Positions 2,162-52,651 are shown, counted from the first letter of the stretch. The stretch is 64,000 bases of DNA from an uncultured Corynebacterium sp. (GCA_943913645.1 CALTYZ010000003.1:37825-101824); one strand, 5' to 3'. The notes: generated by a model not told the origin, from the sequence alone. Made by a program: numbers and translations.

Positions 2162-3223
2162 TTACGCCTCCTCGCTGAGATGCTCGTGGATGATGCGCAC
2201 TGCCTCGGTGATCGCGTCTGCGTCGGTGGTTGGCAGCACCCCGTGGCCCAGGTTGAAAATGTGCCCGGTTGCAGCACCGCTGGCGATGGCGCGCGCCGCC
2301 TCAGCCTTAATCCGAGTCACCTCGGCGCGCACCACCTCGGTCCCGGCGAACAACATTGCGGGATCCAAGTTGCCCTGCAGCACCCGCGGGGATGTAAAGC
2401 GCGTCGCAGCTATGTCGAGTGGCACACGCCAATCCACCCCCATCACTTCTGAGCCGGCCTCCGACATCGCGCCGAGTAGCTCTCCTGTGGTGACACCGAA
2501 ATGGATGCGGGGGATTTCTCCTGCCACGGATTCGAGGATCTGCGTGGAGTATGGCAGGACGTGGTCGCGGTAGTCGCGCTCAGTTAAAAATCCTGCCCAC
2601 GAGTCGAACAGTTGCATGGCATCAATGCCAGCGTCGACTTGTGTGCGCAAAAAAGCGGTGATGGTGGGCACGAGTTTTTCCATCAGTGCATGCCAGGTGT
2701 CCGGCTCTGCGTGCATCATGGCTTTTGTGCGCTCATGGTTTTTACTCGGCCCGCCTTCGATAAGGTAGCTAGCCAGGGTAAACGGCGCGCCGACAAAACC
2801 GATGAGCGCCTGCGTATCGGTGAGCTCCTCCAGGATGATCGCAATGCCTTGTGCAACCTCAGCCACGTCGTGGTCCAACACCGGCAGGGCGGCAACATCG
2901 CGCTGATCCCGCACGGGTTGCGCCACCACCGGGCCCTTACCAGGCACAATTCCTACCTCTATGCCTGCGGCTTTGAGCGGAACCACGATGTCAGAAAACA
3001 AAATCGCCGCGTCAACGTCGTGGCGGCGCACCGGCTGGAGGGTAATCTCGGCGAGCAGCTCGGGCATGAAGCACGACTCAAGCATGAGGATGCCCTCTCG
3101 CACCTGGCGGTACTCCGGCAGGGAGCGGCCCGCCTGGCGCATGAACCACACCGGGGTGCGCGACGGTGTGTGCCCGTGGGCGGCTGCGATGAACGGGGCG
3201 GTAGAAAGGTCGCGTCTAGTCAT
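2162..3223 (-). CDS. hemE: uroporphyrinogen decarboxylase
   Basis: Signature PVWFMRQAGRSLPEYR near N-terminus. Start trimmed to internal ATG (MTRRDLS..., cat at 3221-3223) matching family N-terminus; the longer track ORF to 3283 would overlap the upstream gene by 41 nt. Confidence 0.85.
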   Translation of the reverse strand: MTRRDLSTAPFIAAAHGHTPSRTPVWFMRQAGRSLPEYRQVREGILMLESCFMPELLAEITLQPVRRHDVDAAILFSDIVVPLKAAGIEVGIVPGKGPVVAQPVRDQRDVAALPVLDHDVAEVAQGIAIILEELTDTQALIGFVGAPFTLASYLIEGGPSKNHERTKAMMHAEPDTWHALMEKLVPTITAFLRTQVDAGIDAMQLFDSWAGFLTERDYRDHVLPYSTQILESVAGEIPRIHFGVTTGELLGAMSEAGSEVMGVDWRVPLDIAATRFTSPRVLQGNLDPAMLFAGTEVVRAEVTRIKAEAARAIASGAATGHIFNLGHGVLPTTDADAITEAVRIIHEHLSEEA

Positions 3224-3242: not shown

Positions 3243-5852
3243 CTACTGGGGGAAACGGCGCGCACCCACTGAGCGGTATTCAATGATCAGCGAGCTGCCC
3301 AGCATGAGCAGTGTCGCCCCCATCGGCGGCAGCACTCCGGAGACAGCCAGGATCACCGCAACCACGTTGTATACCCCCGCGAACAGCATGTTGGTGTCGA
3401 TGATGCGGGAGACCCGCCGGCCGTGTTCGAGAAGCTGGGGTACGGCGGTGACGTCATCACGCATGAGCAGCGCATCGGCTGCCATCTCGGTGCGTTTGAA
3501 GCCCATGTCGAAGAACTCGTCTTCGGCGTAGAGCACCCCCACGTCTGCTACCGCGATGGTGTCCATCACTGAGGCGTTGCCCACCATGAGCACGTTCGCG
3601 CCCCGGGTGTGCAGTTGACGGACCGCGCCTGGTTTCTCCTGCGCGGTAATACCTGCCAGTACGGAGGTGATGCCTAACATGTCCGCGAACCGGCGGGCCA
3701 CGGGGTAGGTGTCGCGGGTGAGCATCACCGTGGTGGCCCCCATTGACTCCAGGCGGTCAATTGCGCTGATTGCGTCGAATTTAGCCGAGTCATGCAGGGT
3801 GATCACGCCGCGGTCTTTGCCCTTCCAGCGCACAATCACCGGCGTGCCACCGGTGGTGGCGGCAAGCGCCAACCGGCCGGTGAGCTGAGACAGGTTCGTC
3901 GGGCGCCACAGTTTTGCTTCCAAGCTAGTGGTTTGGTCTTCATCGGGGTCTTCAGACGCGGCGGAACGACGCACCACCACTTTTCCTTCGCAGCCACCAT
4001 CAGGAAGCATCTGCGCAGACTCCACTTCCACACGCCACGGCAGACCAAAGCCTTTCGCCTCGCGCGCGGCCTCAACAATGGCACGCGCCGCCGGGTGGTT
4101 GGAGTCAACAACGAGAGCCGCAGCCACCAGCAGCACAAAGTCTGTTTCCTCACCGCGGGCAGCGGTGACGGTTTCGACTGTCATTTCCGGCTCCACAATG
4201 GTGCCGACCCGGTTGAAGACCACCGTGTCCACGTCGTCGAGCCGTCGCAGCGCCGCGCCATCACGCACCAGGATTCCGTTGCGCGCCGCAGCCTCAATGC
4301 CATTGCGCGTAGCCAGTGCGGGAGAGATCGCCAACGCCACTGGTGCAACAACCGCCAAGATAGCCAGAGCGGTAGAAAATGCCGCGTTGTAGTCCCCAGT
4401 GAGCAACAGCCACATGGAAAAGTCCACAACCGCGATCACGTAGGCGGCGGGGATCAGCATGCTCGCGGATTTCGTGGAGAGCATCGTCGCCGCGTTCTGA
4501 CGTTTCGACGCATCCGATACCCACCTGCTCACCGCCGCCCAGTGCGTGGCGTGGCCGGTGCGTTGGGCACGAACTTTGACACTGCCGTGTTGGATGACCG
4601 AACCAGCCGCGACGTGATCGCCGACGGTAACCGCGGGGGTAAAGGGGGCGTCGATAAGCAAATGGCTCAAACGCGCGCTGCCGCCGACGACTTCCCCGTC
4701 AAGTGGAACGATGTCTCCGCGTCGCAGCTCAATGTCGTCTCCCCGGTTGATCTCTGACAAAGGCAGGATCTCTGGGCTTTGTTTGCCGCGCCGCATGACC
4801 CGATACGGCTGCTCGGACGCGGGGGTGACACGTTGCATGCGCCCCACGAGACTCTCGCCGATGCGTTTCGTGTTAGAACGTCCCACCAGCAGCAATAAAG
4901 TGACACCGCAGGCAACGTCGAGAAAGATTTCGACCTCGCTGCCGCGGCGCGTGGGCATCCACCCGCCGCTTGAGATCCACCCGATATCGCCTGCCGGAGT
5001 AAACAACAGTGCACCAACAGACCAGATGTAGGCGGCGAGGACTGCGATCGAGCTGGCACCATCAAGTGCGGACATGCCGCGACGCACCCCGCCCGCCATC
5101 GCACGGTGAAACGGCCACGCGCACCACAGCGCCACCGGGGTGGCAAGCGCGAAGCAGATCCACTGCCAGCCATCGAACTGCAATTCGGGCAGGTAGCTCA
5201 GCACAATCACCGGGATGGAAAACAACACGGCCACAGCAAGCCGGGCCGGGGTGACCAACTCACGCGAGGTGAAGAGCACGTCATTGTTGCTGGTCTCGCG
5301 CACGGTGCGGCGGGCGAACCCCGCCTCGCGCGCGGCGGTGAGGTCTTGCTTCGCGTGTTGGCGGCGGCGTCGAATCCGCCCGGACATGCCCCGGGTGCTG
5401 CGCCGCGGTGAGCGACGTTCAATGCCTTGGCGGCGAATCAGGTGCCGGCGCAGCGTCGACTCTGTCATCGTGGCGCGCACACCGAACTCGCCGATGACAT
5501 CCACCAGGCGCTGTGGGTCGAGTTCAACAGGGGCTGTGACCCACGCTGTGCAGGTGGTGTAGACGAAGTGGGCGGACACACCCGGAATGGCCTCAAGCGC
5601 GGCCTCGATCACGCCGAGCTGTGGGCCATCTTTGATCCCCTCTAAATCGAAGGCGTACGAGGCGTTGGAGCGAGTGTAGCCATCATCGCCGCTACCGGAG
5701 ATGCCGTCCGGGTTGATGCCGGCGGCCAGTGCCGCATCGCGCGCCTGGGAGATGGAAATCTCGAGCTCATCTGCTGCATCGGTTGCAGTAGTTGCCTTGA
5801 CACTGGGCTCATCGAACGTTTGTGACACCTCTTCCTCCACGGATTCGTTCAC
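3243..5852 (-). CDS. P1B-type (heavy-metal) P-type ATPase homologue with degenerate catalytic motifs (likely non-catalytic)
   Basis: 869 aa with overall P1B-ATPase architecture. It has an HMA-like N-terminal fold (GVSAHFVYTTCTAWVTAP) without a CxxC motif. The actuator-like region GDIVPLDGEVVGGSARL...VGDHVAAGSVIQHGSVKVRAQRTG is present. The TM6 CPC position reads APV (AVVAPVALAISPALATRNGIEAAARNGILVRDG). The phosphorylation motif DKTGT reads NRVGT (VDTVVFNRVGTIVEP). The hinge GDGxND reads GNASVMD. It is a single intact ORF. Confidence 0.6.
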   Translation of the reverse strand: MNESVEEEVSQTFDEPSVKATTATDAADELEISISQARDAALAAGINPDGISGSGDDGYTRSNASYAFDLEGIKDGPQLGVIEAALEAIPGVSAHFVYTTCTAWVTAPVELDPQRLVDVIGEFGVRATMTESTLRRHLIRRQGIERRSPRRSTRGMSGRIRRRRQHAKQDLTAAREAGFARRTVRETSNNDVLFTSRELVTPARLAVAVLFSIPVIVLSYLPELQFDGWQWICFALATPVALWCAWPFHRAMAGGVRRGMSALDGASSIAVLAAYIWSVGALLFTPAGDIGWISSGGWMPTRRGSEVEIFLDVACGVTLLLLVGRSNTKRIGESLVGRMQRVTPASEQPYRVMRRGKQSPEILPLSEINRGDDIELRRGDIVPLDGEVVGGSARLSHLLIDAPFTPAVTVGDHVAAGSVIQHGSVKVRAQRTGHATHWAAVSRWVSDASKRQNAATMLSTKSASMLIPAAYVIAVVDFSMWLLLTGDYNAAFSTALAILAVVAPVALAISPALATRNGIEAAARNGILVRDGAALRRLDDVDTVVFNRVGTIVEPEMTVETVTAARGEETDFVLLVAAALVVDSNHPAARAIVEAAREAKGFGLPWRVEVESAQMLPDGGCEGKVVVRRSAASEDPDEDQTTSLEAKLWRPTNLSQLTGRLALAATTGGTPVIVRWKGKDRGVITLHDSAKFDAISAIDRLESMGATTVMLTRDTYPVARRFADMLGITSVLAGITAQEKPGAVRQLHTRGANVLMVGNASVMDTIAVADVGVLYAEDEFFDMGFKRTEMAADALLMRDDVTAVPQLLEHGRRVSRIIDTNMLFAGVYNVVAVILAVSGVLPPMGATLLMLGSSLIIEYRSVGARRFPQ

Positions 5853-6351: not shown

Positions 6352-7001
6352 TAGCTGCCTCCAGGTGGGTTCGCCCCACCTGGCCGGTCATGTGAGCGGC
6401 CCTCAGGCGGGGCCGCCGCCTGCGCATACGCCACCGACTCCTTTTGGGAGGCGTAGAACACGCCAAGGACTCCCGCCACGGCAAGCATGATCTGGATGAT
6501 CCCGTCGAAGGCATAAAACGCCACCGGGATGGAGCTCGAAGCGGGCTGCGTCACAAACAGTGTCAGTGCCCGCAGCGCGAAAAAGATGGCAAAGATTTGC
6601 AGCAGACGCCGCGCGTTCGGTGCCCATTTTCGTTGCTTGGCCAGCGCATGAAGCGCAACCGCAAAGAGTGCGATCACCGCCAACTGGAGAAGCGCCATAA
6701 ACACCACTGACCCAATGAGACCGAGCGACATCATCGCATCAGTCAGGTCCTCACCGCGTGCTTTGGCGGCTGCGCGGGCTGATTCCTTCAGCGCCGCCGG
6801 GTCTAGCACCGTTGAGATCACGGTGAGGATTTGGTGCAGCAGTTCCCCGGCGATCATCACCACCCAGCAGGTGAGCATGTAGCGCACCGCTTCGGGCCGT
6901 TCGTTGTCAGAACCCTTGGGACCGTTGCTTGTTGACGTCTGCGTCGCAGCTGGTGCCACGTGACTGCCCGAATTCGGGTTCATTGGCGGCAAACTCACCA
7001 T
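6351..7001 (-). CDS. hypothetical integral membrane protein
   Basis: 216 aa, multiple hydrophobic helices (MLTCWVVMIAGELL, LGLIGSVVFMALLQLAVIALFAVALHAL, IFAIFFALRALTLFV, IIQIMLAVAGVLGVFY); stop/start overlap with the downstream membrane gene at 6351. Confidence 0.45.
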   Translation of the reverse strand: MVSLPPMNPNSGSHVAPAATQTSTSNGPKGSDNERPEAVRYMLTCWVVMIAGELLHQILTVISTVLDPAALKESARAAAKARGEDLTDAMMSLGLIGSVVFMALLQLAVIALFAVALHALAKQRKWAPNARRLLQIFAIFFALRALTLFVTQPASSSIPVAFYAFDGIIQIMLAVAGVLGVFYASQKESVAYAQAAAPPEGRSHDRPGGANPPGGS

Positions 7002-7025: not shown

Positions 7026-8081
7026 TTAGAGCCCGGCGGACTCGCGTAGTGCGTTCGCCGCCTCGATGGCATAGTAGGTGAGAATTTGCTCGGCCCCGGC
7101 CCGTTTGATGGATATCAGTGCCTCCATCATTGCCTCGTGGAATTCGATCCAGCCGTTTTGGCCGGCGGCGACCAGCATGGCGTATTCGCCGGAGACCTGG
7201 TAGGCCGCAACAGGCACGGGCGAGAGTTCAGCGACTTGGTGCAGCACATCAAGGTATGGCAGGGCTGGTTTGACCATGACAAAATCTGCGCCTTCGTCGA
7301 TATCGAGCTGTGCTTCTAACAGCGATTCGCGCGTGTTTGCCGGGTCTTGTTGGTAGGTGCGGCGATCACCGGTGAGCGACGAGCCGACCGCGTCACGGAA
7401 CGGGCCGAAGAATTTGGAGGCGTACTTGGCGGAATACGCCATGATTGCCACGTCTGTGTAGCCGTTTGCGTCCAACGCCTCACGGATGAGACCGACTTGG
7501 CCGTCCATCATGCCTGATGGGCTGACAATGTGGGCGCCGGCTGCGGCCTGCGCAACCGCCATCGCACAGTAATGGCTCAGCGTGGCATCGTTGTCTACTT
7601 GTTCGCGTCCCCACCGGTCGGTGGTGAGCACACCGCAGTGGCCGTGGTCGGTGAACTCATCGAGGCAGGTATCTGCCATGATGAGCAGGTCATCGCCGAA
7701 CTCTTCTCGCAGTGCGCGCAGGTTGCGGTTGAGCACCCCGTCTTCATCTCGCGCCGGAGAGCCATCAGCGTCTTTGTCTTGCTCCAGCGGCACACCGAAC
7801 AGGTCCACGCAGCTCACCCCGGCCTCAAGGGCGCTGTGGCACATGGCCTTGAGGCTGTCCGTGGTGTGCTGGTACACCCCCGGCATCGAGGGGATCTCGC
7901 GGCGCTCGGTGATGCCATCGGCGACAAACAGCGGCAGGATGAAATCCGCCGGGTGCAGTCGTGTCTGTGCAGTCAGCTCACGTATGCGCAGGTTTTGGCG
8001 CAGGCGTCGGGGGCGGCGCGGCAAGCTCACACTGAGCTCAACCGCAGGGTCAGTATGGGGGTCAAAAGACATGCATCCCAT
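7026..8081 (-). CDS. hemB: porphobilinogen synthase (delta-aminolevulinate dehydratase)
   Basis: 351 aa; RRPRRLRQN...LPLFV N-terminal region, GVSCVDLFGVP, active-site Lys region FVMVKPALPYLDV. Start could alternatively be ATG at 8072 (MSFDPH...). Confidence 0.85.
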   Translation of the reverse strand: MGCMSFDPHTDPAVELSVSLPRRPRRLRQNLRIRELTAQTRLHPADFILPLFVADGITERREIPSMPGVYQHTTDSLKAMCHSALEAGVSCVDLFGVPLEQDKDADGSPARDEDGVLNRNLRALREEFGDDLLIMADTCLDEFTDHGHCGVLTTDRWGREQVDNDATLSHYCAMAVAQAAAGAHIVSPSGMMDGQVGLIREALDANGYTDVAIMAYSAKYASKFFGPFRDAVGSSLTGDRRTYQQDPANTRESLLEAQLDIDEGADFVMVKPALPYLDVLHQVAELSPVPVAAYQVSGEYAMLVAAGQNGWIEFHEAMMEALISIKRAGAEQILTYYAIEAANALRESAGL

Positions 8082-9947: not shown

Positions 9948-10856
9948 TTAATTCATAAGCTCGGCTGCGCCGCTGCCCAGCAGCGCAGCCGCGACCTGCT
10001 GGCCAACCTCCACAGGGTTGTCACCTACCGCAGTTTCAACAATCTGTGCCGATCCATCCAGGGCGAAAACACCCCCGGTGAGCGTGATTACCTCATCAGT
10101 AATCTGCGCATATGCCGCCACAGGGGCGGTGCACCCGGCCTCGAGGGTGGCAAGGACTTGCCGCTCTGCTGTTGCCTGGGCGCTGGCGGTGGCATCTGCT
10201 AACCCATCAATCGCCGCACAGGTTTGCGCATCATCGGCGCGACATTCCACCGCAAGCGCGCCCTGCGCTGGGGCCGGCAGTACAGTCTCTGGTGCAAAGA
10301 CCTCTGTTGCGCGGTGCGCATAGCCGCCACGGCTCAACCCGGCGTACGCCAGCACAATGGCGTCGAGTTCACCGGCCTCAACGTAGCCCATCCGGGTTTC
10401 GATGTTGCCGCGCAGCGGGCGAATGTCAAGATCTGGGCGCAGCGCGCGCAGCTGGGAGATCCGCCGAGGTGCCGATGTGCCCACGCGGGCGCCTTGGGGC
10501 AATTGCGCAAGGGTGAGCCCATCGCGGGCGATGAGCGCGTCCCGGTGATCTTCACGCGGCGGAACAATCACATGAGCGCGTGGCTCTGCAGCGGTGGGCA
10601 AATCCTTGTAGGAGTGCACGGCAATATCGACATCCCCCCGAAACAACGCCTCACGCAGCGCCGAGGTAAAAACGCCAACGCCGATGCGCTCCACCGGGGC
10701 TTGCGAAAGGTCACCTGGGGTGGTCACTACTGTGAGTTCAGCTGCGTGCCCGGCGCGTCCGAGCGCATCTCGAACGTGGCCGGCTTGGGTGGTGGCGAGG
10801 TGAGATCCGCGGGTGCCAATCCGCAACATCATGCGCTCCTTTGTGCGGGGGTGCAA
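9948..10856 (-). CDS. hemC: hydroxymethylbilane synthase (porphobilinogen deaminase)
   Basis: [19 protein letters not shown]-terminal signature; cofactor-binding Cys in [12 protein letters not shown]. Confidence 0.85.
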
Positions 10857-46199: not shown

Positions 46200-47285
46200 T
46201 CAGCCCGCCGCTAGGAACTGAACTCTGGCGCGAAGCCGATCGGAATGAGCATAGATTTCTTCAGCCCCGCCTGGCAGGTCGTAGGCTATTTCTTCCCGCT
46301 CGGGGGTGAAGATAATGATGCGGGGGACCTGCCTATCAAATTGCAGTCGAGCAATCGTTTTCCGGTTGTTGTCTTTGTACAGAATCGCACAGTAACTTTT
46401 CGCATCCCGCATAACGACATCCGAGGCCGGTACCTCTGAGCAGCAGATCGCGCGAACGATCCCGAACGCTTCAATCTCCTCGTCAGTGGTGACGATGCCG
46501 TGGCTGTCGACCTCGGTCGCCAGCTCAGCGGTGTCAACATCTGCCGGATCGGCGTCACCCGCGGGGTCTTCGAGGTCTTGGGCAGACCGGAGCCGACGAT
46601 TCACCTCGTCACGCAGATATTGATTCATGGCAGTGTGGGTTAGCTCAGTAAACTTTTCCAAGTTTTGCGCGGTCATGCGTTGTGCCGTAACCCGACTGGA
46701 GATCAAGCGTACGAGATCCTGGCTCGGGGTTTTAAACTCAGCAGCGATCTCTCGGCGCAGAGCAGCTACGTACTTCAGCTCCTCAGCCATGGCGAGCAAC
46801 GTTGTTGGATCGAAGTGAGGTTTCGTCATCTTCTCCAAGTTCGGTAATGCTCGCGAATCGACGTTGCTTAAGTCCAAGATGAGGAATGGCTGCTCATCCA
46901 TCCGGTTGGCTCGGTCAAGCTGCGTATAAAATTGATAGACTTCCCCGTTTGTAAGAATTGCAAATTCCGTGTCAGTGACGTTGAAGTAGCGCACCAGCTG
47001 GCTGGCATGGTTGAGGTCCAGCGGAGAGCCGATCCGCTTGCATTCAATGAGGAAACGAAAGTCTTCTCCCTGCTTGATCGCAAAATCGACCTTTTCCCCC
47101 TTTTTCGTACCAACGTCCGCCGTATATTCGGGGATGACTTCACGAGGGTCAGTGACGTCATAGCCAAGAATCTCCGAAATAAAGGGGATGATGAACGCAG
47201 TTTTTGTTGCCTCCTCAGTTTCAATAATCGGTTTGAGGTCTCTTACTTTGCGCGCGAGGTTTGCAACGGCTTGATCCAGACTCAC
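46200..47285 (-). CDS. standalone HsdR_N-type PD-(D/E)xK nuclease-domain protein
   Basis: 361 aa. The N-terminal 110 aa match the type I restriction R-subunit N-terminal domain pattern (EEATKTAFIIPFISEILGY...KVDFAI...FLIECKRIG; D...E-x-K nuclease core). The C-terminal ~200 aa are acidic/helical. GC content is visibly lower than the flanks and an AT-rich region lies upstream. Confidence 0.55.
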   Translation of the reverse strand: MSLDQAVANLARKVRDLKPIIETEEATKTAFIIPFISEILGYDVTDPREVIPEYTADVGTKKGEKVDFAIKQGEDFRFLIECKRIGSPLDLNHASQLVRYFNVTDTEFAILTNGEVYQFYTQLDRANRMDEQPFLILDLSNVDSRALPNLEKMTKPHFDPTTLLAMAEELKYVAALRREIAAEFKTPSQDLVRLISSRVTAQRMTAQNLEKFTELTHTAMNQYLRDEVNRRLRSAQDLEDPAGDADPADVDTAELATEVDSHGIVTTDEEIEAFGIVRAICCSEVPASDVVMRDAKSYCAILYKDNNRKTIARLQFDRQVPRIIIFTPEREEIAYDLPGGAEEIYAHSDRLRARVQFLAAG

Positions 47286-47406
47286 GTGACCCCTCCTAAT
47301 GGGCGACAGGCTCGAATATCAAAATTAGCTTAAATACTAGACAATTAATCTAATTTAGCTGTGATTTCATTGAAAGTCGGGACCCTTTTTCCTCAACAGA
47401 TACTCG

Positions 47407-47428
47407 AGGGTTGTCCGCGCGGCGGACA
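47407..47428. repeat. 22-bp motif AGGGTTGTCCGCGCGGCGGACA (contains 17-bp palindrome TGTCCGC-GCG-GCGGACA), copy 1
   Basis: Exact 22/22 identity with 60359-60380; located in divergent promoter region between HsdR_N-like gene and flippase-like gene. Confidence 0.5.
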
Positions 47429-47546: not shown

Positions 47547-48770
47547 GTGGCCGTGAAGAACCTCTCGCTTGCGACGCTGTTTTCGGCGTTGGCCGGATTC
47601 GTCCTCATGTGGGTGGCCGGGTGGGCTCTTGATGTGGAGACGGAGTACCGCTACTTCACTGCGTATTGGGGCTTGTTCTTCGCCGCAACGGGAGTGATTG
47701 ACGGTATTACCCACGAGACCACCCGCGCGGTTGCCTCTGCACGCGAAACTGGGGCGCGTGGCACAGCAAGCCCGTGGCGATTTGGTGCTGTGGTAGCTAC
47801 CGCGATTGTGTTTGTGGTGATCGGGGTTGGGTTTTGGGTCATGGTCAAACTCGTCCCCATGTCACCCGCGCCAGCCACCAGCCTATTGGTGTTTGGCCTG
47901 ATCAGTTACGTCTTTCAAGCCGCCCTGTCAGGGATTCTCAGCGGCGCACAACTGTGGAATCAGTACGCCGGGTTGGTTGCGCTGGACTCTGGTGTGCGTT
48001 TGGGGTTGGCGTTGCTTGCTTGGGTGCTTGGGTGGGGGTTGTCTGCGTTCTTGTTGATCACGGTCGCAGGGGCGGCAAGTTGGCTTGCCATTTTAGGCAC
48101 ATCGCGGGAGGCGCGGGAGAAGATCCGGGTCGCGCTTGACGTAAACCGGGAAGCGTTTACCCGACGGGTGTGTTCAGCAATGGTGGCATCTGGCGCCTCC
48201 GCGGCACTGATCACTGGGTTTCCTACCGCTGTGTCTGCGGCTTTCCCAGATGGGGACGCACAGCTTTCTGTCATCATCAGCGCAATTAACAACGCGGTGA
48301 TGCTCACCCGCGCCCCGGTGTTGGTGCCATTGCAGCGGTTTCAGTCGGCGTTGGTGGTGCGGTTCGTGGAACAGCGAAAGCGCATCTACCAGGCGCTGCT
48401 TGGTCCTGTGGTGGGCGTGATGGGCTTAGGGGTGATCGGTTTTGTCGCGGCGTGGGTCTTCGGGCCGTTGATTTTGCGGCTTGCCTTCAAGCCGGAATTA
48501 TTCGTCGGCGGACTCATCTTGGGGCTTTTGACTTTTGCTTCGGCCTTCATGGGCACGCTCATGATCACCGGCGTGGCGGTGCTCGCGCTCGACCAACATC
48601 GGTGGTACGTGGCTGGCTGGGTCACCGCATCCGTAGTGGCGTTCGCACTGCTTTTCTTCGGCCCCTGGGGAGTGGTGCGCTCGGTGGTTCTAGCGTTGTT
48701 CGCAGGCCCCTTGGCGGGGGCGATCGTGCACGTCATCGGGCTGTCGCGGGCAAAAGCAGGGGCAGCATAA
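47547..48770 (+). CDS. polytopic membrane protein, putative polysaccharide/lipid-linked oligosaccharide flippase (MOP/Wzx-like)
   Basis: 407 aa, ~12 hydrophobic helices, hydrophilic loop around REAREKIRVALDVNREAF mid-protein; sits upstream of rml and GT2 genes. Family assignment by topology only. Confidence 0.4.
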   Translation: MAVKNLSLATLFSALAGFVLMWVAGWALDVETEYRYFTAYWGLFFAATGVIDGITHETTRAVASARETGARGTASPWRFGAVVATAIVFVVIGVGFWVMVKLVPMSPAPATSLLVFGLISYVFQAALSGILSGAQLWNQYAGLVALDSGVRLGLALLAWVLGWGLSAFLLITVAGAASWLAILGTSREAREKIRVALDVNREAFTRRVCSAMVASGASAALITGFPTAVSAAFPDGDAQLSVIISAINNAVMLTRAPVLVPLQRFQSALVVRFVEQRKRIYQALLGPVVGVMGLGVIGFVAAWVFGPLILRLAFKPELFVGGLILGLLTFASAFMGTLMITGVAVLALDQHRWYVAGWVTASVVAFALLFFGPWGVVRSVVLALFAGPLAGAIVHVIGLSRAKAGAA

Positions 48771-48832
48771 CACTCAGCTTCCCACATGCATAACACATGT
48801 GGGATGTAGGTGTTATGTTGAGTGTTATGTTG
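48766..48832. promoter_or_regulatory. iteron-like cluster of four ATAACAC/GTGTTAT motifs with nested inverted repeats at the 5' end of the AlbA_2 ATPase gene
   Basis: Sequence cagcATAACACtcagcttCCCACATGcATAACACATGTGGGatgtagGTGTTATgttgaGTGTTATgttg. Two direct and two inverted copies of a 7-mer are present. There is a 9-bp perfect hairpin (TCCCACATG/CATGTGGGA). Outer 10-bp inverted repeat is ATAACACTCA/TGAGTGTTAT. Tandem 11-mer GTGTTATGTTG occurs twice. Coordinates +/-1. Confidence 0.35.
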
Positions 48833-50260
48833 CCGGATGAGTTAAAACTGTTGATCGATCAATTGCGGATCGTCGGAGCTGAGCAGCAGCGCGTCGAGGC
48901 AAAAACCGGGGTCGGCAAATCCGTGCTCGAAACACTTAGTGCGTTTTCTAACCAGGGCGGAGGGGTCATCCTCGTAGGCATCAGCGAGGAAAACGGATTC
49001 ACGCCCATTCCCGGTTTCGATGCCCACGCAGCGCGTGACGCGCTCGTCTCGCGCTGCGATCAGCTGACCCCAGCAGTGCGGCCAGACATGGAAGTAGTCA
49101 GCTTCGAGGGCCAATCAGTCCTCGTGGCCCAGGTCGAGGAACTAGAGAACCTGGAAAAACCGTGTTACATCACCGCGCGTGGCCAGTACAACGGAAGTTA
49201 CGCCCGTACTGGCGACAGTGATGTGAAGTTGACTCGCTACGAAGTCGACCGCCTGATTGAGCAGCGAACTCAGCCACGATGGGATCTAGAACCGATCCAA
49301 GACGCATCTGAAAGCGACTTGGATAGCGGCGTTCTTAACGCGTATCTCGATGAGCAACGAGCACGGCGACCCAAAACGTTTGAAGATGACCTCTCGGCCG
49401 CTCTGACCCGCTTGCGGATTCTGCGAGACGGCAGCCCGACACTCGCCGCCATCCTAGCGATGGGCGACTACCCCCAACAGTTCTTCCCCCGGTTGACAGT
49501 CACATTCGCGCTGTATCCAGGGACAGGAAAGGGAGATGTGATCCAGGGGGTGCGTCTGCTGGACAGTCAACGCTTGAATGGCGCCATTCCGGAGCTCGTC
49601 GAAACGGGTGTTCGGCTCGTAGAAAATAACATGCGCACAGCTGGTCTTATTGACGACGTATTCCGGCGCGATCTACCCGACTATCCCCGGGTCGCTGTGC
49701 GTGAGGCGTTGGTTAACGCACTGATGCACCGAGATTACTCACCGGCGGCGCTCGGCACCTCTGTCCAGATTGACATGTTCGTAGACCGATTGGTGATCAC
49801 CAACCCGGGCGGGCTCTACGGAGGTGTAACTACGCAGAACCTCGGCGACCCCGGTGCAAGCTCCACCCGCAACCAGCAACTGGCAACCTTCCTTGAAGAT
49901 CTGCGGTATCCCACCGGTGGCCCAGTAGCAGAAAACCGAGGCACTGGCATCGCAGTCATGAATCGGGCAGCCACGGAGGCGCTTATGCCACCGCCCGAGT
50001 TTACGAACAGCCTCACCCACTTCTCCGTGACATTCTGGAAACGTAAGGTTGCAGTCACCGAGAAACACGAAACGGCCTACCAAAAGGTCGCGCGGCTCGT
50101 GGAGGAAAAAGCCTCTTGGTCGACGACCGAGCTTGTCCGCGCAACAGATCTGAGCCGCACTGCCGTGCAACGTGCATTGAACCAACTCGTCGCCGATAGG
50201 ATCGTGGAGAAAACCGAACCCGATAGGAGCCCCAAGCAGCGTTACCGGCTACGCAAATAG
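48797..50260 (+). CDS. AlbA_2 (Schlafen-like divergent AAA) domain ATP-binding protein with C-terminal HATPase_c_4-like and wHTH regions
   Basis: 487 aa. The N-terminus has LLIDQLRIVGAEQQRVEAKTGVGKSVLETLSAFSNQGGGVILVGISEENG, typical of the AlbA_2/putative DNA-binding domain. A mid region has the HATPase_c_4-like REALVNALMHRDY. The C-terminus is basic and HTH-like (ELVRATDLSRTAVQRALNQLV). True start probably ATG near 48827 (MLPDELK...). Confidence 0.5.
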   Translation: MWDVGVMLSVMLPDELKLLIDQLRIVGAEQQRVEAKTGVGKSVLETLSAFSNQGGGVILVGISEENGFTPIPGFDAHAARDALVSRCDQLTPAVRPDMEVVSFEGQSVLVAQVEELENLEKPCYITARGQYNGSYARTGDSDVKLTRYEVDRLIEQRTQPRWDLEPIQDASESDLDSGVLNAYLDEQRARRPKTFEDDLSAALTRLRILRDGSPTLAAILAMGDYPQQFFPRLTVTFALYPGTGKGDVIQGVRLLDSQRLNGAIPELVETGVRLVENNMRTAGLIDDVFRRDLPDYPRVAVREALVNALMHRDYSPAALGTSVQIDMFVDRLVITNPGGLYGGVTTQNLGDPGASSTRNQQLATFLEDLRYPTGGPVAENRGTGIAVMNRAATEALMPPPEFTNSLTHFSVTFWKRKVAVTEKHETAYQKVARLVEEKASWSTTELVRATDLSRTAVQRALNQLVADRIVEKTEPDRSPKQRYRLRK

Positions 50261-51295
<1,035 letters not shown>

Positions 51296-51322: not shown

Positions 51323-52651
51323 ATGCGCGAGACCCCTATTGATGGCCTCATCGTCTACGACTTGAGCCTGCACGAGGACAACCGTGGCTGGTTCAAGGAA
51401 AATTGGGCGGGCCAGCATCTGACACCGAAGCAAAATAACGTCAGCCTCAATACGCACGCCGGCACGACCCGCGGGATGCACGCGGAGCCGTGGGATAAGT
51501 GGGTTTCGGTAGCAACCGGCAAGGTCTACGGCGCGTGGGTGGATATGCGCGCAGGCTCTCCCACCTTTGGCGCGACTTTCGGCGTTGAAATCACCCCCGC
51601 CACCGCGGTGTTCGTGCCGCGCGGGGTGGCTAACGGCTTTCAAACGCTGGAGGACAACACCGCCTACATCTACTTGGTGAACCAGCGCTACAACCCGAAT
51701 GGCACCTACGCGTTTTGCTCCTACAAGGAAATTGAATGGCCGCTTGCCCCAACGCAGCTTTCCAGTGCCGACAAGAAGCACCCGATGCTTGTCGACGCAA
51801 CCCCCGTCGCCCCGCGCAAAATCCTTGTCACGGGGGCACACGGCCAGCTCGGGCGCGCGCTGCAGCAGGTGTGGGACGAACATGAGGCAGATTTTTTCGG
51901 CCACGAGGAGTTCGATATCACCAACATCCCAAAGCTGGATTTCTCGCAGTACTGGGCGATTGTGAACTGCGCCGCCTATAACGACGTCAACGGTGCCACA
52001 ACCAATCGGGCTACCGCGTGGGCCACGAACGCGACGGCCCCGGCTGATCTTGCCGCCATTGCCAACGAGCACGACCTGACTTTGGTGCATGTCTCCTCCG
52101 ACTATATTTTCGACGGCACTCGTCAGCTGCACTCTGAGGATGAGCCTCCCAGCCCGCTGAGTGCTTACGGTGCTTCAAAGGCGGCAGGTGATACGGCGGC
52201 GCAGGTGGCTCACAAGCACTATGTGGTGCGCACTGCCTGGGTGTTCGGGGATGGCTCGAATTTCATGGAGACCATGGCGCGCCTTGCGGAAAAGGGTGTG
52301 CAGCCACACGTGGTCAGTGACCAGCGGGGACGGCCAACCTGGGCTGAGGACCTGGCCAAGGGCATTGCTCACCTGCTGGCAACCGGCGCTGCGTACGGCG
52401 TGTACAACCTCACCTCCGAAGGGGACCCGGTTGGTCGCAATGAGATCGCGATGGCGGTCTATATCGGGATGGGGAAAGATCCCTCCGACGTGCACCCTGT
52501 GACTTCTGCGCAGTACGCCGAACTGGTTGGGCCTGAAGCACCGCGGCCGGCGGAATCTACGTTAGACCTGGCGAAAATCACCGCCGCCGGCTTCACTCCT
52601 ACCAACTGGCGAGCTGCTTTGGCGTTCTACCTCGACGGGCGCGCGAGGTAG
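51323..52651 (+). CDS. rmlC: bifunctional dTDP-4-dehydrorhamnose 3,5-epimerase / dTDP-4-dehydrorhamnose reductase (RmlC-RmlD fusion)
   Basis: The N-terminal ~180 aa form the RmlC cupin (LSLHEDNRGWFKENW). The C-terminal ~260 aa are RmlD (KILVTGAHGQLGRAL Rossmann, YGASKAAGD YxxxK). Confidence 0.8.
   Translation: MRETPIDGLIVYDLSLHEDNRGWFKENWAGQHLTPKQNNVSLNTHAGTTRGMHAEPWDKWVSVATGKVYGAWVDMRAGSPTFGATFGVEITPATAVFVPRGVANGFQTLEDNTAYIYLVNQRYNPNGTYAFCSYKEIEWPLAPTQLSSADKKHPMLVDATPVAPRKILVTGAHGQLGRALQQVWDEHEADFFGHEEFDITNIPKLDFSQYWAIVNCAAYNDVNGATTNRATAWATNATAPADLAAIANEHDLTLVHVSSDYIFDGTRQLHSEDEPPSPLSAYGASKAAGDTAAQVAHKHYVVRTAWVFGDGSNFMETMARLAEKGVQPHVVSDQRGRPTWAEDLAKGIAHLLATGAAYGVYNLTSEGDPVGRNEIAMAVYIGMGKDPSDVHPVTSAQYAELVGPEAPRPAESTLDLAKITAAGFTPTNWRAALAFYLDGRAR

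Follow-up and report, generated by a model that had tools for sequence, protein, structure and literature searches.

The 64,000-nt stretch of DNA from an uncultured Corynebacterium sp. analyzed here (GCA_943913645.1, CALTYZ010000003.1:37825-101824; referred to as the window, with positions counted from its first letter) contains a dTDP-rhamnose (rml) operon. Between a membrane-protein gene and rmlB, this operon carries a gene for a Schlafen-type ATPase with a C-terminal winged helix-turn-helix (wHTH), termed the Schlatpase-wHTH gene. An array of short boxes, first in forward and then in reverse orientation, lies at the 5' end of this gene, and we are highly confident that it represents a specific and conserved cis-element of the Schlatpase-HTH gene family. 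The features of the array and the gene are as follows.

48761..48834, no strand assigned: palindromic array (cis-element), a 74-bp imperfect palindrome with six CWTMMCAC boxes, obtained with a repeat finder, a motif scan, and folding.
48780..48804, no strand assigned: inner perfect 9-bp inverted repeat, TCCCACATG (48780-88) and CATGTGGGA (48796-804) separated by a 7-nt loop.
48814..48819, + strand: -10-like hexamer TATGTT (TAnnnT) in the fifth box, 7 nt before ATG 48827, read from the sequence.
48797..48826, + strand: in-frame upstream ATGs (48797 and 48815), which lengthen the mechanical open reading frame (ORF) and are an unlikely start.
48827..50260, + strand: Schlatpase-wHTH gene, 477 amino acids (aa) from the third ATG, based on Pfam, homologue lengths, N-terminal alignment, AlphaFold, and Foldseek.

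The arms of the palindrome are 37 nt long, with a complementarity of 76% according to the repeat finder. Three forward boxes (48766 CATAACAC, 48778 CTTCCCAC, and 48789 CATAACAC) are followed by three reverse boxes (48799 GTGGGATG, 48810 GTGTTATG, and 48822 GTGTTATG), the start-to-start distances being 12, 11, 10, 11, and 12 bp. The inner 9-bp repeat corresponds to the central box pair (CTTCCCAC/GTGGGA), its loop containing the third forward box, and the outer inverted repeat ATAACACTCA (48767-76)/TGAGTGTTAT (48819-28) can be extended to 11 bp. The 7-mer ATAACAC is located at 48767 and 48790, GTGTTAT at 48810 and 48822, and GTGTTATGTTG is present in two copies (48810-20 and 48822-32) with a period of 12. 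On re-inspection of the exact sequence, every motif listed in the initial annotation (the 7-mers, the hairpin, the outer repeat, and the duplicated 11-mer) was present at the position given there. The consensus CWTMMCAC has 20 matches in the window, 6 of which make up the array, the other 14 being scattered singletons. All four copies of CATAACAC in the 64 kb fall inside 64 bp, with 1.2 copies expected for the whole window. The region had also been characterized as unusually AT-rich and structured, and the AT-richness holds: its GC content is 0.459 versus 0.601 for the window, among the lowest 1.8% of 74-nt windows, and as a single strand it has a predicted fold of -42.6 kcal/mol (z = -5.4), with none of 200 shuffles equally stable. 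The motif cluster is real and beyond chance. The stop codon TAA of the upstream gene (48768-70) falls in box 1. More generally, the forward boxes carry TAA and the reverse boxes ATG, so that the array ends incoming ORFs and gives outgoing starts on either strand.

The 477-aa protein is composed of an N-terminal SLFN_AlbA_2 domain (Pfam PF04326, E = 6.6e-14), a GHKL ATPase domain (HATPase_c_4, PF13749, E = 2.4e-24, with the profile matched over its full length), and a C-terminal winged helix. The catalytic (E/D)x4(E/D)xK motif, the Schlafen E-x4-E-x-K motif as defined in PMC13056530, is intact as AEQQRVEAK, and E24 and K26 are invariant in 18 homologues. The C-terminal helix-turn-helix (HTH) gave matches to MarR_2 and HTH_IclR just under the Pfam cut-offs and a PDB sequence match to AdcR. 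The AlphaFold model (predicted local distance difference test score, 79) has three helices and a beta-hairpin at residues 417-475, matching MarR folds, and a predicted recognition helix at approximately residues 444-456 (RTAVQRALNQLVA). Foldseek matches include C. diphtheriae DIP2311 (3LMM), the nuclease domains of human SLFN5/11/12/14 and SAMD9, PDK/histidine-kinase GHKL folds, and MarR. All three defining parts of the Schlatpase-HTH (pSlfn-HisKinase-HTH) family, i.e., the SLFN motif, the GHKL domain, and the C-terminal wHTH, are present in the protein. PADLOC matched only the Schlatpase part of a prokaryotic Argonaute (pAgo) model; beyond partial domain matches, PADLOC and NCBIfam assigned no defense-system or named-family membership, and an exact-protein look-up of the 487-aa longest ORF and of protein P0039 gave no match.

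According to two sources, the pSlfn-HisKinase-HTH architecture is the most frequent one among prokaryotic Schlafens (pSlfn), with 19% of pSlfn proteins (PMC13056530), Schlatpase proteins with an HTH constitute >90% of the Schlatpase proteins with C-terminal tails (preprint 10.64898/2026.05.29.728809), and the class is functionally uncharacterized in both. Among the constructs tested in PMC13056530, phage protection was conferred by DUF262 and immunoglobulin-like (Ig-like) fusions only, and hence the tested HisKinase (GHKL) fusions gave none. For the related SLFN-pAgo, preprint 10.64898/2026.05.29.728809 describes a tetramerization that depends on ATP and is driven by the GHKL domain.

The 487-aa ORF starts at ATG 48797, inside the array, and protein P0001 was called from 48815 (481 aa). 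The extra in-frame ATGs follow from the 12-bp period of the boxes, which corresponds to 4 codons. Since homologues are mostly 477 aa long and their N-termini align from 48827, the third ATG is supported as the true start, as had been proposed initially. This ATG lies inside the last box, of which it forms the final three bases in the window and in many relatives (GTGTT followed by ATG). Five loci that form a sub-clade (L106, L108, L134, L185, and L202) instead possess a short leader and, within it, a purine-rich site for ribosome binding; since their N-terminus falls at the same aligned position, the assignment of 48827 gains further support. With respect to the promoter, TATGTT, TAAGTT, or TATGCT followed by 6-7 nt and ATG is also found in L002, L003, L005, L009, L011, L063, L090, L101, L161, and L201. 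A TAnnnT element 6-7 nt before the ATG is the geometry of leaderless actinobacterial promoters, such as those of Corynebacterium and Mycobacterium. The arrangement suggests a leaderless promoter and a leaderless mRNA.

Relatives were collected by a scan of one genome per species together with protein alignment, which yielded 80 loci, a sample among the matches listed. Paired arrays were scored where the upstream and downstream flanks of a locus share a segment with an alignment score of at least 50, and 237 comparisons served as controls. Such a segment, 60-120 bp long, was found in 34 of the 80 loci and in none of the 237 controls, for which the maximal score was 33. The strict 8-mer array score (one mismatch at most) was at least 3 in 24/83 upstream and 15/82 downstream regions versus 0/164 controls; the claim of paired arrays rests on the alignment of upstream with downstream flanks and its controls, which was preferred to this score. 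Nearly all paired loci (32/34) have short boxes, forward and then reverse, the remaining two (L006 and L047) having another repeat type. Box arrays were found in Schaalia, Brevibacterium, Actinomycetaceae, Propioniciclava, Actinotignum, Bifidobacterium, Collinsella, other Coriobacteriia, and Corynebacterium. The spacing of adjacent boxes in the same orientation (n = 173) is 11-12 bp in 102 cases and 8 bp in 39 cases, the latter typically alternating with 12. The box itself differs by lineage, with CTTCCCAC, CTTACCAC, CTTTCCAC, CTTAACAC/G, CTTATTCAC, CTTCACAC, CATAACAC, ACTTGGGA, CCTAGGAA, CTTGCTAA, and others observed, and the box order of the window array (A-B-A, then B'-A'-A') recurs in L003 and L103. 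More distant homologues often retain an upstream dyad or array alone, and in Rothia, Olsenella, and Arcanobacterium both arrays are located upstream of the gene, where they bracket a TATAAT-like -10 element. Between Collinsella species, orthologous arrays share 87-88% identity, compared with 81% for the two arrays of one genome and 96% for the gene DNA. These values imply that both arrays have been retained independently and vertically over the long term, rather than homogenized, recently duplicated, or recently moved.

Several loci carry repeats of other kinds. In L047 (a contig of a Senegalimassilia metagenome-assembled genome, MAG), the gene is enclosed by two perfect copies of a 64-bp direct repeat rich in AT, TTATATTTAGGGAACATTTTTGATATTTTATTTGCAAAAAGTTCCCTATAAATTGCTGGTTTTA, at about 1-65 and about 1950-2015 (-201/+173 relative to the gene); this repeat is unlike the box arrays and may be an att-like site. 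In L006, a contig of a Propionibacteriaceae MAG, an approximately 118-bp GC-rich hairpin repeat of another type lies on both sides of the gene (4756-4874 and 6473-6590), and both L006 and L008 have a CTTCCCAC-type box array directly before the ATG. The 32% identical homologue of Acetoanaerobium noterae (L204) has an inverted-repeat element of approximately 110 nt on both sides (1208-1335 and 3042-3167) with boxes AATCAAGAGGGAC/GTCCCTCATGGTTGATT. This hints at paired structured repeats beyond Actinobacteria, or at an unrelated genomic repeat, and being a different inverted repeat it was not counted as the same architecture. Protein searches of plasmids and phages returned distant homologues only (at most 37% identity). 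One of them, a 25% identical homologue on a plasmid of Azotobacter salinestris annotated as an HTH-domain protein (L205, NZ_CP045303.1 149021-150484), is placed between brxC and pglX in a BREX-1 operon with no intergenic space and is not comparable; some family members are thus embedded in defense operons rather than being stand-alone, array-flanked modules.

Corynebacterium homologues at 55-70% identity have the same kind of array in the same position relative to the ATG. The gene of Corynebacterium sp. CNCTC7651 (L002, 70% identity) occupies the junction between the membrane gene and rmlB, as in the window; an array resembling that of the window precedes it, and a nearly identical second one begins at its stop codon. 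In C. mucifaciens (L003, 66%), the gene with two flanking arrays is located between rmlCD and rmlA, and the membrane gene is directly followed by rmlB. The downstream arrays of Corynebacterium loci also carry -10-like elements that could drive rmlA or rmlB. A metagenome scan was carried out with the pattern CATAACAC-N(8-38)-GTGTTATGTTG; most of its matches are inverted repeats of low GC content that arise by chance, and only matches with both high GC and several boxes (GC of at least 0.59, at least 3 boxes) are informative. Among the matches listed, 16 contigs are of the latter type, 13 of them with the gene adjacent and 3 with gene-less arrays. Nine of the 13 have the gene at the rmlCD/rmlA junction (L101, L106, L108, L118, L134, L161, L185, L201, and L202), three are from the window's species and have it between the membrane gene and rmlB, and L090 lacks rml context. 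The cassette of gene and arrays therefore occupies two junctions of the rml operon in Corynebacterium: rmlCD/rmlA in most lineages (L003 and nine metagenome contigs) and membrane gene/rmlB otherwise (the window, L002, L126, L153, and L199).

The three gene-less cases, all in metagenome contigs that are Corynebacterium-like, are of two kinds. L103 has a solo array between rmlCD and rmlA (7859-7922); its left flank and left part correspond to the upstream array of L106/L108, whereas its right part and right flank correspond to their downstream array. Such an exact chimera is the product expected from recombination between two direct-repeat arrays; read in reverse, the solo array could be an insertion target for a circle containing the gene and one array. 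L152 (1938-2085) and L174 (4607-4750), which represent the same locus, have two arrays 45 bp apart and no gene. As judged from these comparisons, the cassette shows presence/absence polymorphism with breakpoints inside the arrays. The initial annotation had also offered an att-like reading, in which the array marks the insertion of the gene at this junction. It is supported in part, by the uninterrupted membrane gene/rmlB junction of relatives such as C. mucifaciens, by the cassette at another rml junction in those relatives, and by the L103 chimera; no recombinase was found among the 119 neighbor proteins of relatives, no target-site duplication other than a doubtful 3-bp CTA at the two junctions, and no site-specific mechanism. 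No transfer RNA genes, a possible att site, were found at positions 40-56 kb of the window.

Within the loci covered, the array is linked exclusively to the gene. The search for arrays elsewhere proposed at the outset revealed no second copy and no other box cluster in the 64-kb window, and no copies away from the gene in approximately 0.9 Mb of related loci, where the only extra matches to the array sequences are two sites approximately 300-350 bp upstream of the gene. The 119 neighbor proteins gave matches to 113 Pfam families, each of them seen three times at most. Genes of the rml pathway are nearby in the close Corynebacterium loci only, the neighbors elsewhere being unrelated between loci, and a functional tie to rhamnose biosynthesis was set aside because the rml context is limited to this clade. 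A scan of viral contigs for tandem boxes, as possible phage-borne targets, yielded one match due to chance and a direct-repeat cluster of an unrelated kind; the gene accompanied neither of them.

The genes and spacers on both sides of the cassette in the window are as follows.

47547..48770, + strand: polytopic membrane-protein gene, 407 aa, whose frame extends by 6 codons into the insertion, up to the TAA in box 1.
50258..50284, + strand: spacer between the gene and rmlB, 27 bp, comprising the TAG stop and 24 bp up to the rmlB ATG at 50285.

The downstream array is absent at 50258-50284, where relatives have theirs, and the spacer of the window (TAGCTG...GGTA.AGTA...ATGGAA) resembles the native membrane-gene/rmlB spacer of L003. 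Since two arrays are the rule in relatives and the window lacks the second copy, the window represents a derived (degenerate) state; by this comparison, its species appears to have lost the downstream array and kept the promoter-proximal one. The membrane protein, initially called flippase-like, contains some 10 or more hydrophobic segments; neither Pfam nor NCBIfam yielded a family for it, and the label is unconfirmed. Its gene continues beyond the conserved C-terminal GL(S/T/A)R and into inserted sequence (48747-48770), whereas relatives that lack the cassette at this position have the stop right after GLTR (L003 3600-3640; L002 5880-5945 compared). Just upstream of it, a low-GC patch (46200-47420, GC 0.43-0.53 versus 0.60) encodes a 361-aa protein in which HSDR_N, the N-terminal domain of type I restriction HsdR, is the sole domain (46200-47285, - strand). 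The patch is found in contigs of the window's species (L001 and L126) but in neither L002 nor L003, suggesting that a small insertion was acquired here separately. Downstream, rmlC and rmlD are fused in one 442-aa ORF (51323-52651; dTDP_sugar_isom and RmlD_sub_bind), as in related Corynebacterium loci. In L002, the rmlCD/rmlA junction that houses the Schlafen cassette in other species is occupied by an extra 146-aa Thr/Ala/Pro-rich ORF (10039-10479) with a hydrophobic segment near each end.

Variation of the boxes parallels that of the protein. Four families were distinguished by the predicted recognition helix and the box: LSRTAVQ with CTTCCCAC/CATAACAC, xSxKTxRxY with ACT(A/T)GGGA, IPRSTxTY with CTTGCTAAC, and SLxGxRR with AACAC. 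Across these families, the box sequence co-varies with the predicted recognition helix of the winged helix. This co-variation and the linkage of array and gene across genera and contexts favor the operator or autoregulatory role put forward in the initial annotation, which is also backed by the overlap of the array with the predicted leaderless promoter and the start codon. Hence, the array is probably the cognate multi-site operator by which the gene would autorepress itself, and it would also mark the unit of gain and loss; binding, repression, and looping are what we infer from the sequence comparisons. According to this model, the 8-10-bp boxes, approximately one helical turn apart, would form a dyad-symmetric, multi-site operator for the adjacent gene, to which oligomers of the encoded protein would bind cooperatively via the C-terminal winged helix, along one face of the DNA, in two opposed half-arrays. 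The last two boxes would supply the -10 element and the start codon of the leaderless mRNA, so that occupancy of the reverse half-array would block both. Such autorepression would hold down the amount of a Schlafen-type RNase that may be toxic. The paired arrays, which bracket the whole gene or its promoter, would fit DNA bridging or looping by an ATP-driven tetramer. As direct repeats, the arrays may also recombine, the gene and one array being deleted or possibly inserted, which would explain the solo arrays and the differing positions of the cassette.

Several observations weigh against the operator model. Approximately one-half of the more distant homologues have no clear array by the criteria used, and the strict 8-mer score is noisy, a score of 2 being reached in 27% of controls. 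A scan for the sigma-70 consensus detected no canonical promoter at the array, and the proposed -10 element, a TAnnnT sequence, is a weak match. Shared ancestry is a confounder of the parallel variation of box and helix. Both CTTCCCAC and CATAACAC boxes occur with recognition helices that hardly differ, so that no recognition code emerges, and DNA might be read by the AlbA_2 domain and not by the winged helix. Finally, simple autorepression leaves the role of the second array unexplained.

The element might instead act as RNA or single-stranded DNA, i.e., as a terminator or insulator against transcription from the upstream membrane gene, a mask of the start codon in read-through transcripts, or a structured decoy or antitoxin (type III toxin-antitoxin-like) for the Schlafen RNase. 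The strength of the predicted fold, the location of the array directly at the 3' end of the upstream gene, the start of the relatives' second copy at the stop codon of the Schlafen gene, and the position of ATG 48827 in the 3' arm of the stem would all be in line with such a role. However, the stem has no T-run, the sequence following it being GCCGGATGAG, and a terminator scan gave no call for an intrinsic terminator at the array; Rfam returned no family match, with only sub-threshold microRNA-like hairpins. In 45 non-redundant arrays, the palindrome mismatches comprise 51 G-U and 61 A-C pairs (binomial p = 0.40) and 211 other non-complementary pairs; with G-U pairs not in excess over A-C pairs, the coding strand lacks the bias that selection for an RNA stem would be expected to leave. 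It is the phased boxes, and not the stem geometry, that are conserved. ToxIN-like type III repeats were likewise rejected, as the half-arrays are inverted with an 11-12-bp period, unlike the ~36-nt direct repeats of the ToxI type, and show neither a strand bias in mismatches nor an Rfam match. Together, these results favor a double-stranded, protein-binding array and make an RNA or single-stranded element quite improbable, although the hairpin may have an additional role in read-through transcripts.

A role of the arrays as ends or attachment sites of a small mobile cassette, moved by the protein or a host enzyme and with regulation being secondary, we regard as unlikely. It would account for the direct-repeat arrays that bracket the gene in many genera, the unrelated genomic contexts, the two different rml junctions in Corynebacterium, and the gene-less solo and paired arrays (L103, L152, and L174) with the exact chimera in L103; the TAA of the forward and the ATG of the reverse boxes would make insertion inside operons tolerable. 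Yet no linked integrase or transposase was found among the window genes at 43.3-55.1 kb and the 119 neighbors, the possible CTA is not a convincing target-site duplication, the arrays of Rothia, Olsenella, and Arcanobacterium flank the promoter and not the gene, and the Collinsella identities point to vertical retention. Moreover, host homologous recombination suffices for deletion between direct repeats of 45-70 bp. A generic genome-wide repeat, similar to repetitive extragenic palindromic (REP) elements or miniature inverted-repeat transposable elements (MITEs), or a chance cluster unrelated to the gene would share with REP elements the short, palindromic, and intergenic character, and a few relatives do have other repeats near the gene (L006 and L047); the lack of further copies in the window and away from the gene in the related loci, together with a gene linkage kept across genera and contexts, makes this explanation very hard to sustain. 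A more far-reaching and speculative proposal is that Schlatpase-HTH genes could be self-contained, DNA-tethered effector modules, whose two flanking arrays dock the Schlafen RNase as an inactive DNA-bound oligomer (the DNA serving as an "antitoxin" or anchor) until ATP-driven reorganization or displacement, e.g., upon infection, DNA damage, or loss of the locus, frees an active tRNA-cleaving tetramer; the arrays would also make the gene an excisable and insertable cassette. We consider this doubtful, and the autorepressing operator remains the favored explanation.

Comparison with known systems places this operator model among familiar principles. Like autoregulatory systems with several operators and looping (gal, deo, and lac, or MarR-family autorepression), the module provides dyad-symmetric sites that overlap the predicted promoter of the HTH protein itself, with two separated operator clusters per unit and an oligomeric regulator (here, a tetramer would be expected from the GHKL domain). 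In contrast to these systems, there are 4-10 phased boxes per operator instead of one dyad, the second array is usually beyond the 3' end of the gene, the putative repressor has a Schlafen nuclease and a GHKL ATPase domain, and no regulon beyond the gene itself was seen. Plasmid iterons (P1 incC/incA, F ori2/incC) are similar in having clusters of short, helically phased repeats that flank the gene of the presumed binder, and their handcuffing, or bridging between clusters, is a precedent for a two-array logic. Nonetheless, the term iteron-like, used in the initial annotation, does not apply in the plasmid sense: iterons are 17-22-bp direct repeats at an origin and are bound by Rep, whereas the boxes described here are 8-10 bp long, forward then reverse, and chromosomal, with neither a Rep domain in the protein nor origin features. 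Other prokaryotic Schlafens, including the SLFN-pAgo Schlatpase, share the SLFN_AlbA_2 domain with (E/D)x4ExK and the GHKL ATPase supradomain, but the third domain here is a winged helix and not an Argonaute, Ig-like, or DUF262 domain. For the family, a sensor-effector logic has been proposed (PMC13056530; 10.64898/2026.05.29.728809). Integron attC sites and solo long terminal repeats (LTRs) resemble the arrays as 60-120-bp imperfect palindromes that delimit a single-gene cassette, variable in sequence and conserved in structure, and that may remain as gene-less remnants after recombination between flanking direct repeats. On the other hand, the cassette has its own promoter-like element and start, and the arrays are built of phased boxes; there is no IntI, attI, or cassette array, nor evidence for single-strand recombination. 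An integron attC site was rejected as a candidate, since GCATAAC and GTTATGT match 6/7 of the RYYYAAC/GTTRRRY cores (by eye) and not exactly, and no integrase is present among the genes at 43.3-55.1 kb or the 119 neighbors.

No mention of flanking repeat arrays was found in PMC13056530 and 10.64898/2026.05.29.728809, as far as these were searched, and such arrays were likewise not found in other literature (open-access papers and bioRxiv). The phased, palindromic architecture with two arrays thus appears undescribed, whereas its principle, a DNA-binding protein with sites at its own gene, is ordinary. For annotation, the start codon is corrected, and the N-terminal extensions made by gene callers are explained by the in-frame ATGs that result from the 12-bp period. 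A predicted DNA ligand beside each gene, co-varying with the winged helix, makes the Schlatpase-HTH family directly testable, and the families of boxes and winged helices provide a ready set of orthogonal protein/site pairs. The rule of two arrays per module, together with the chimeric solo array, points to ways in which single-gene modules may be controlled and may be lost or moved without a linked recombinase. If true, the DNA-tethered mode of action would provide the most common uncharacterized prokaryotic Schlafens with both a ligand and a control logic.

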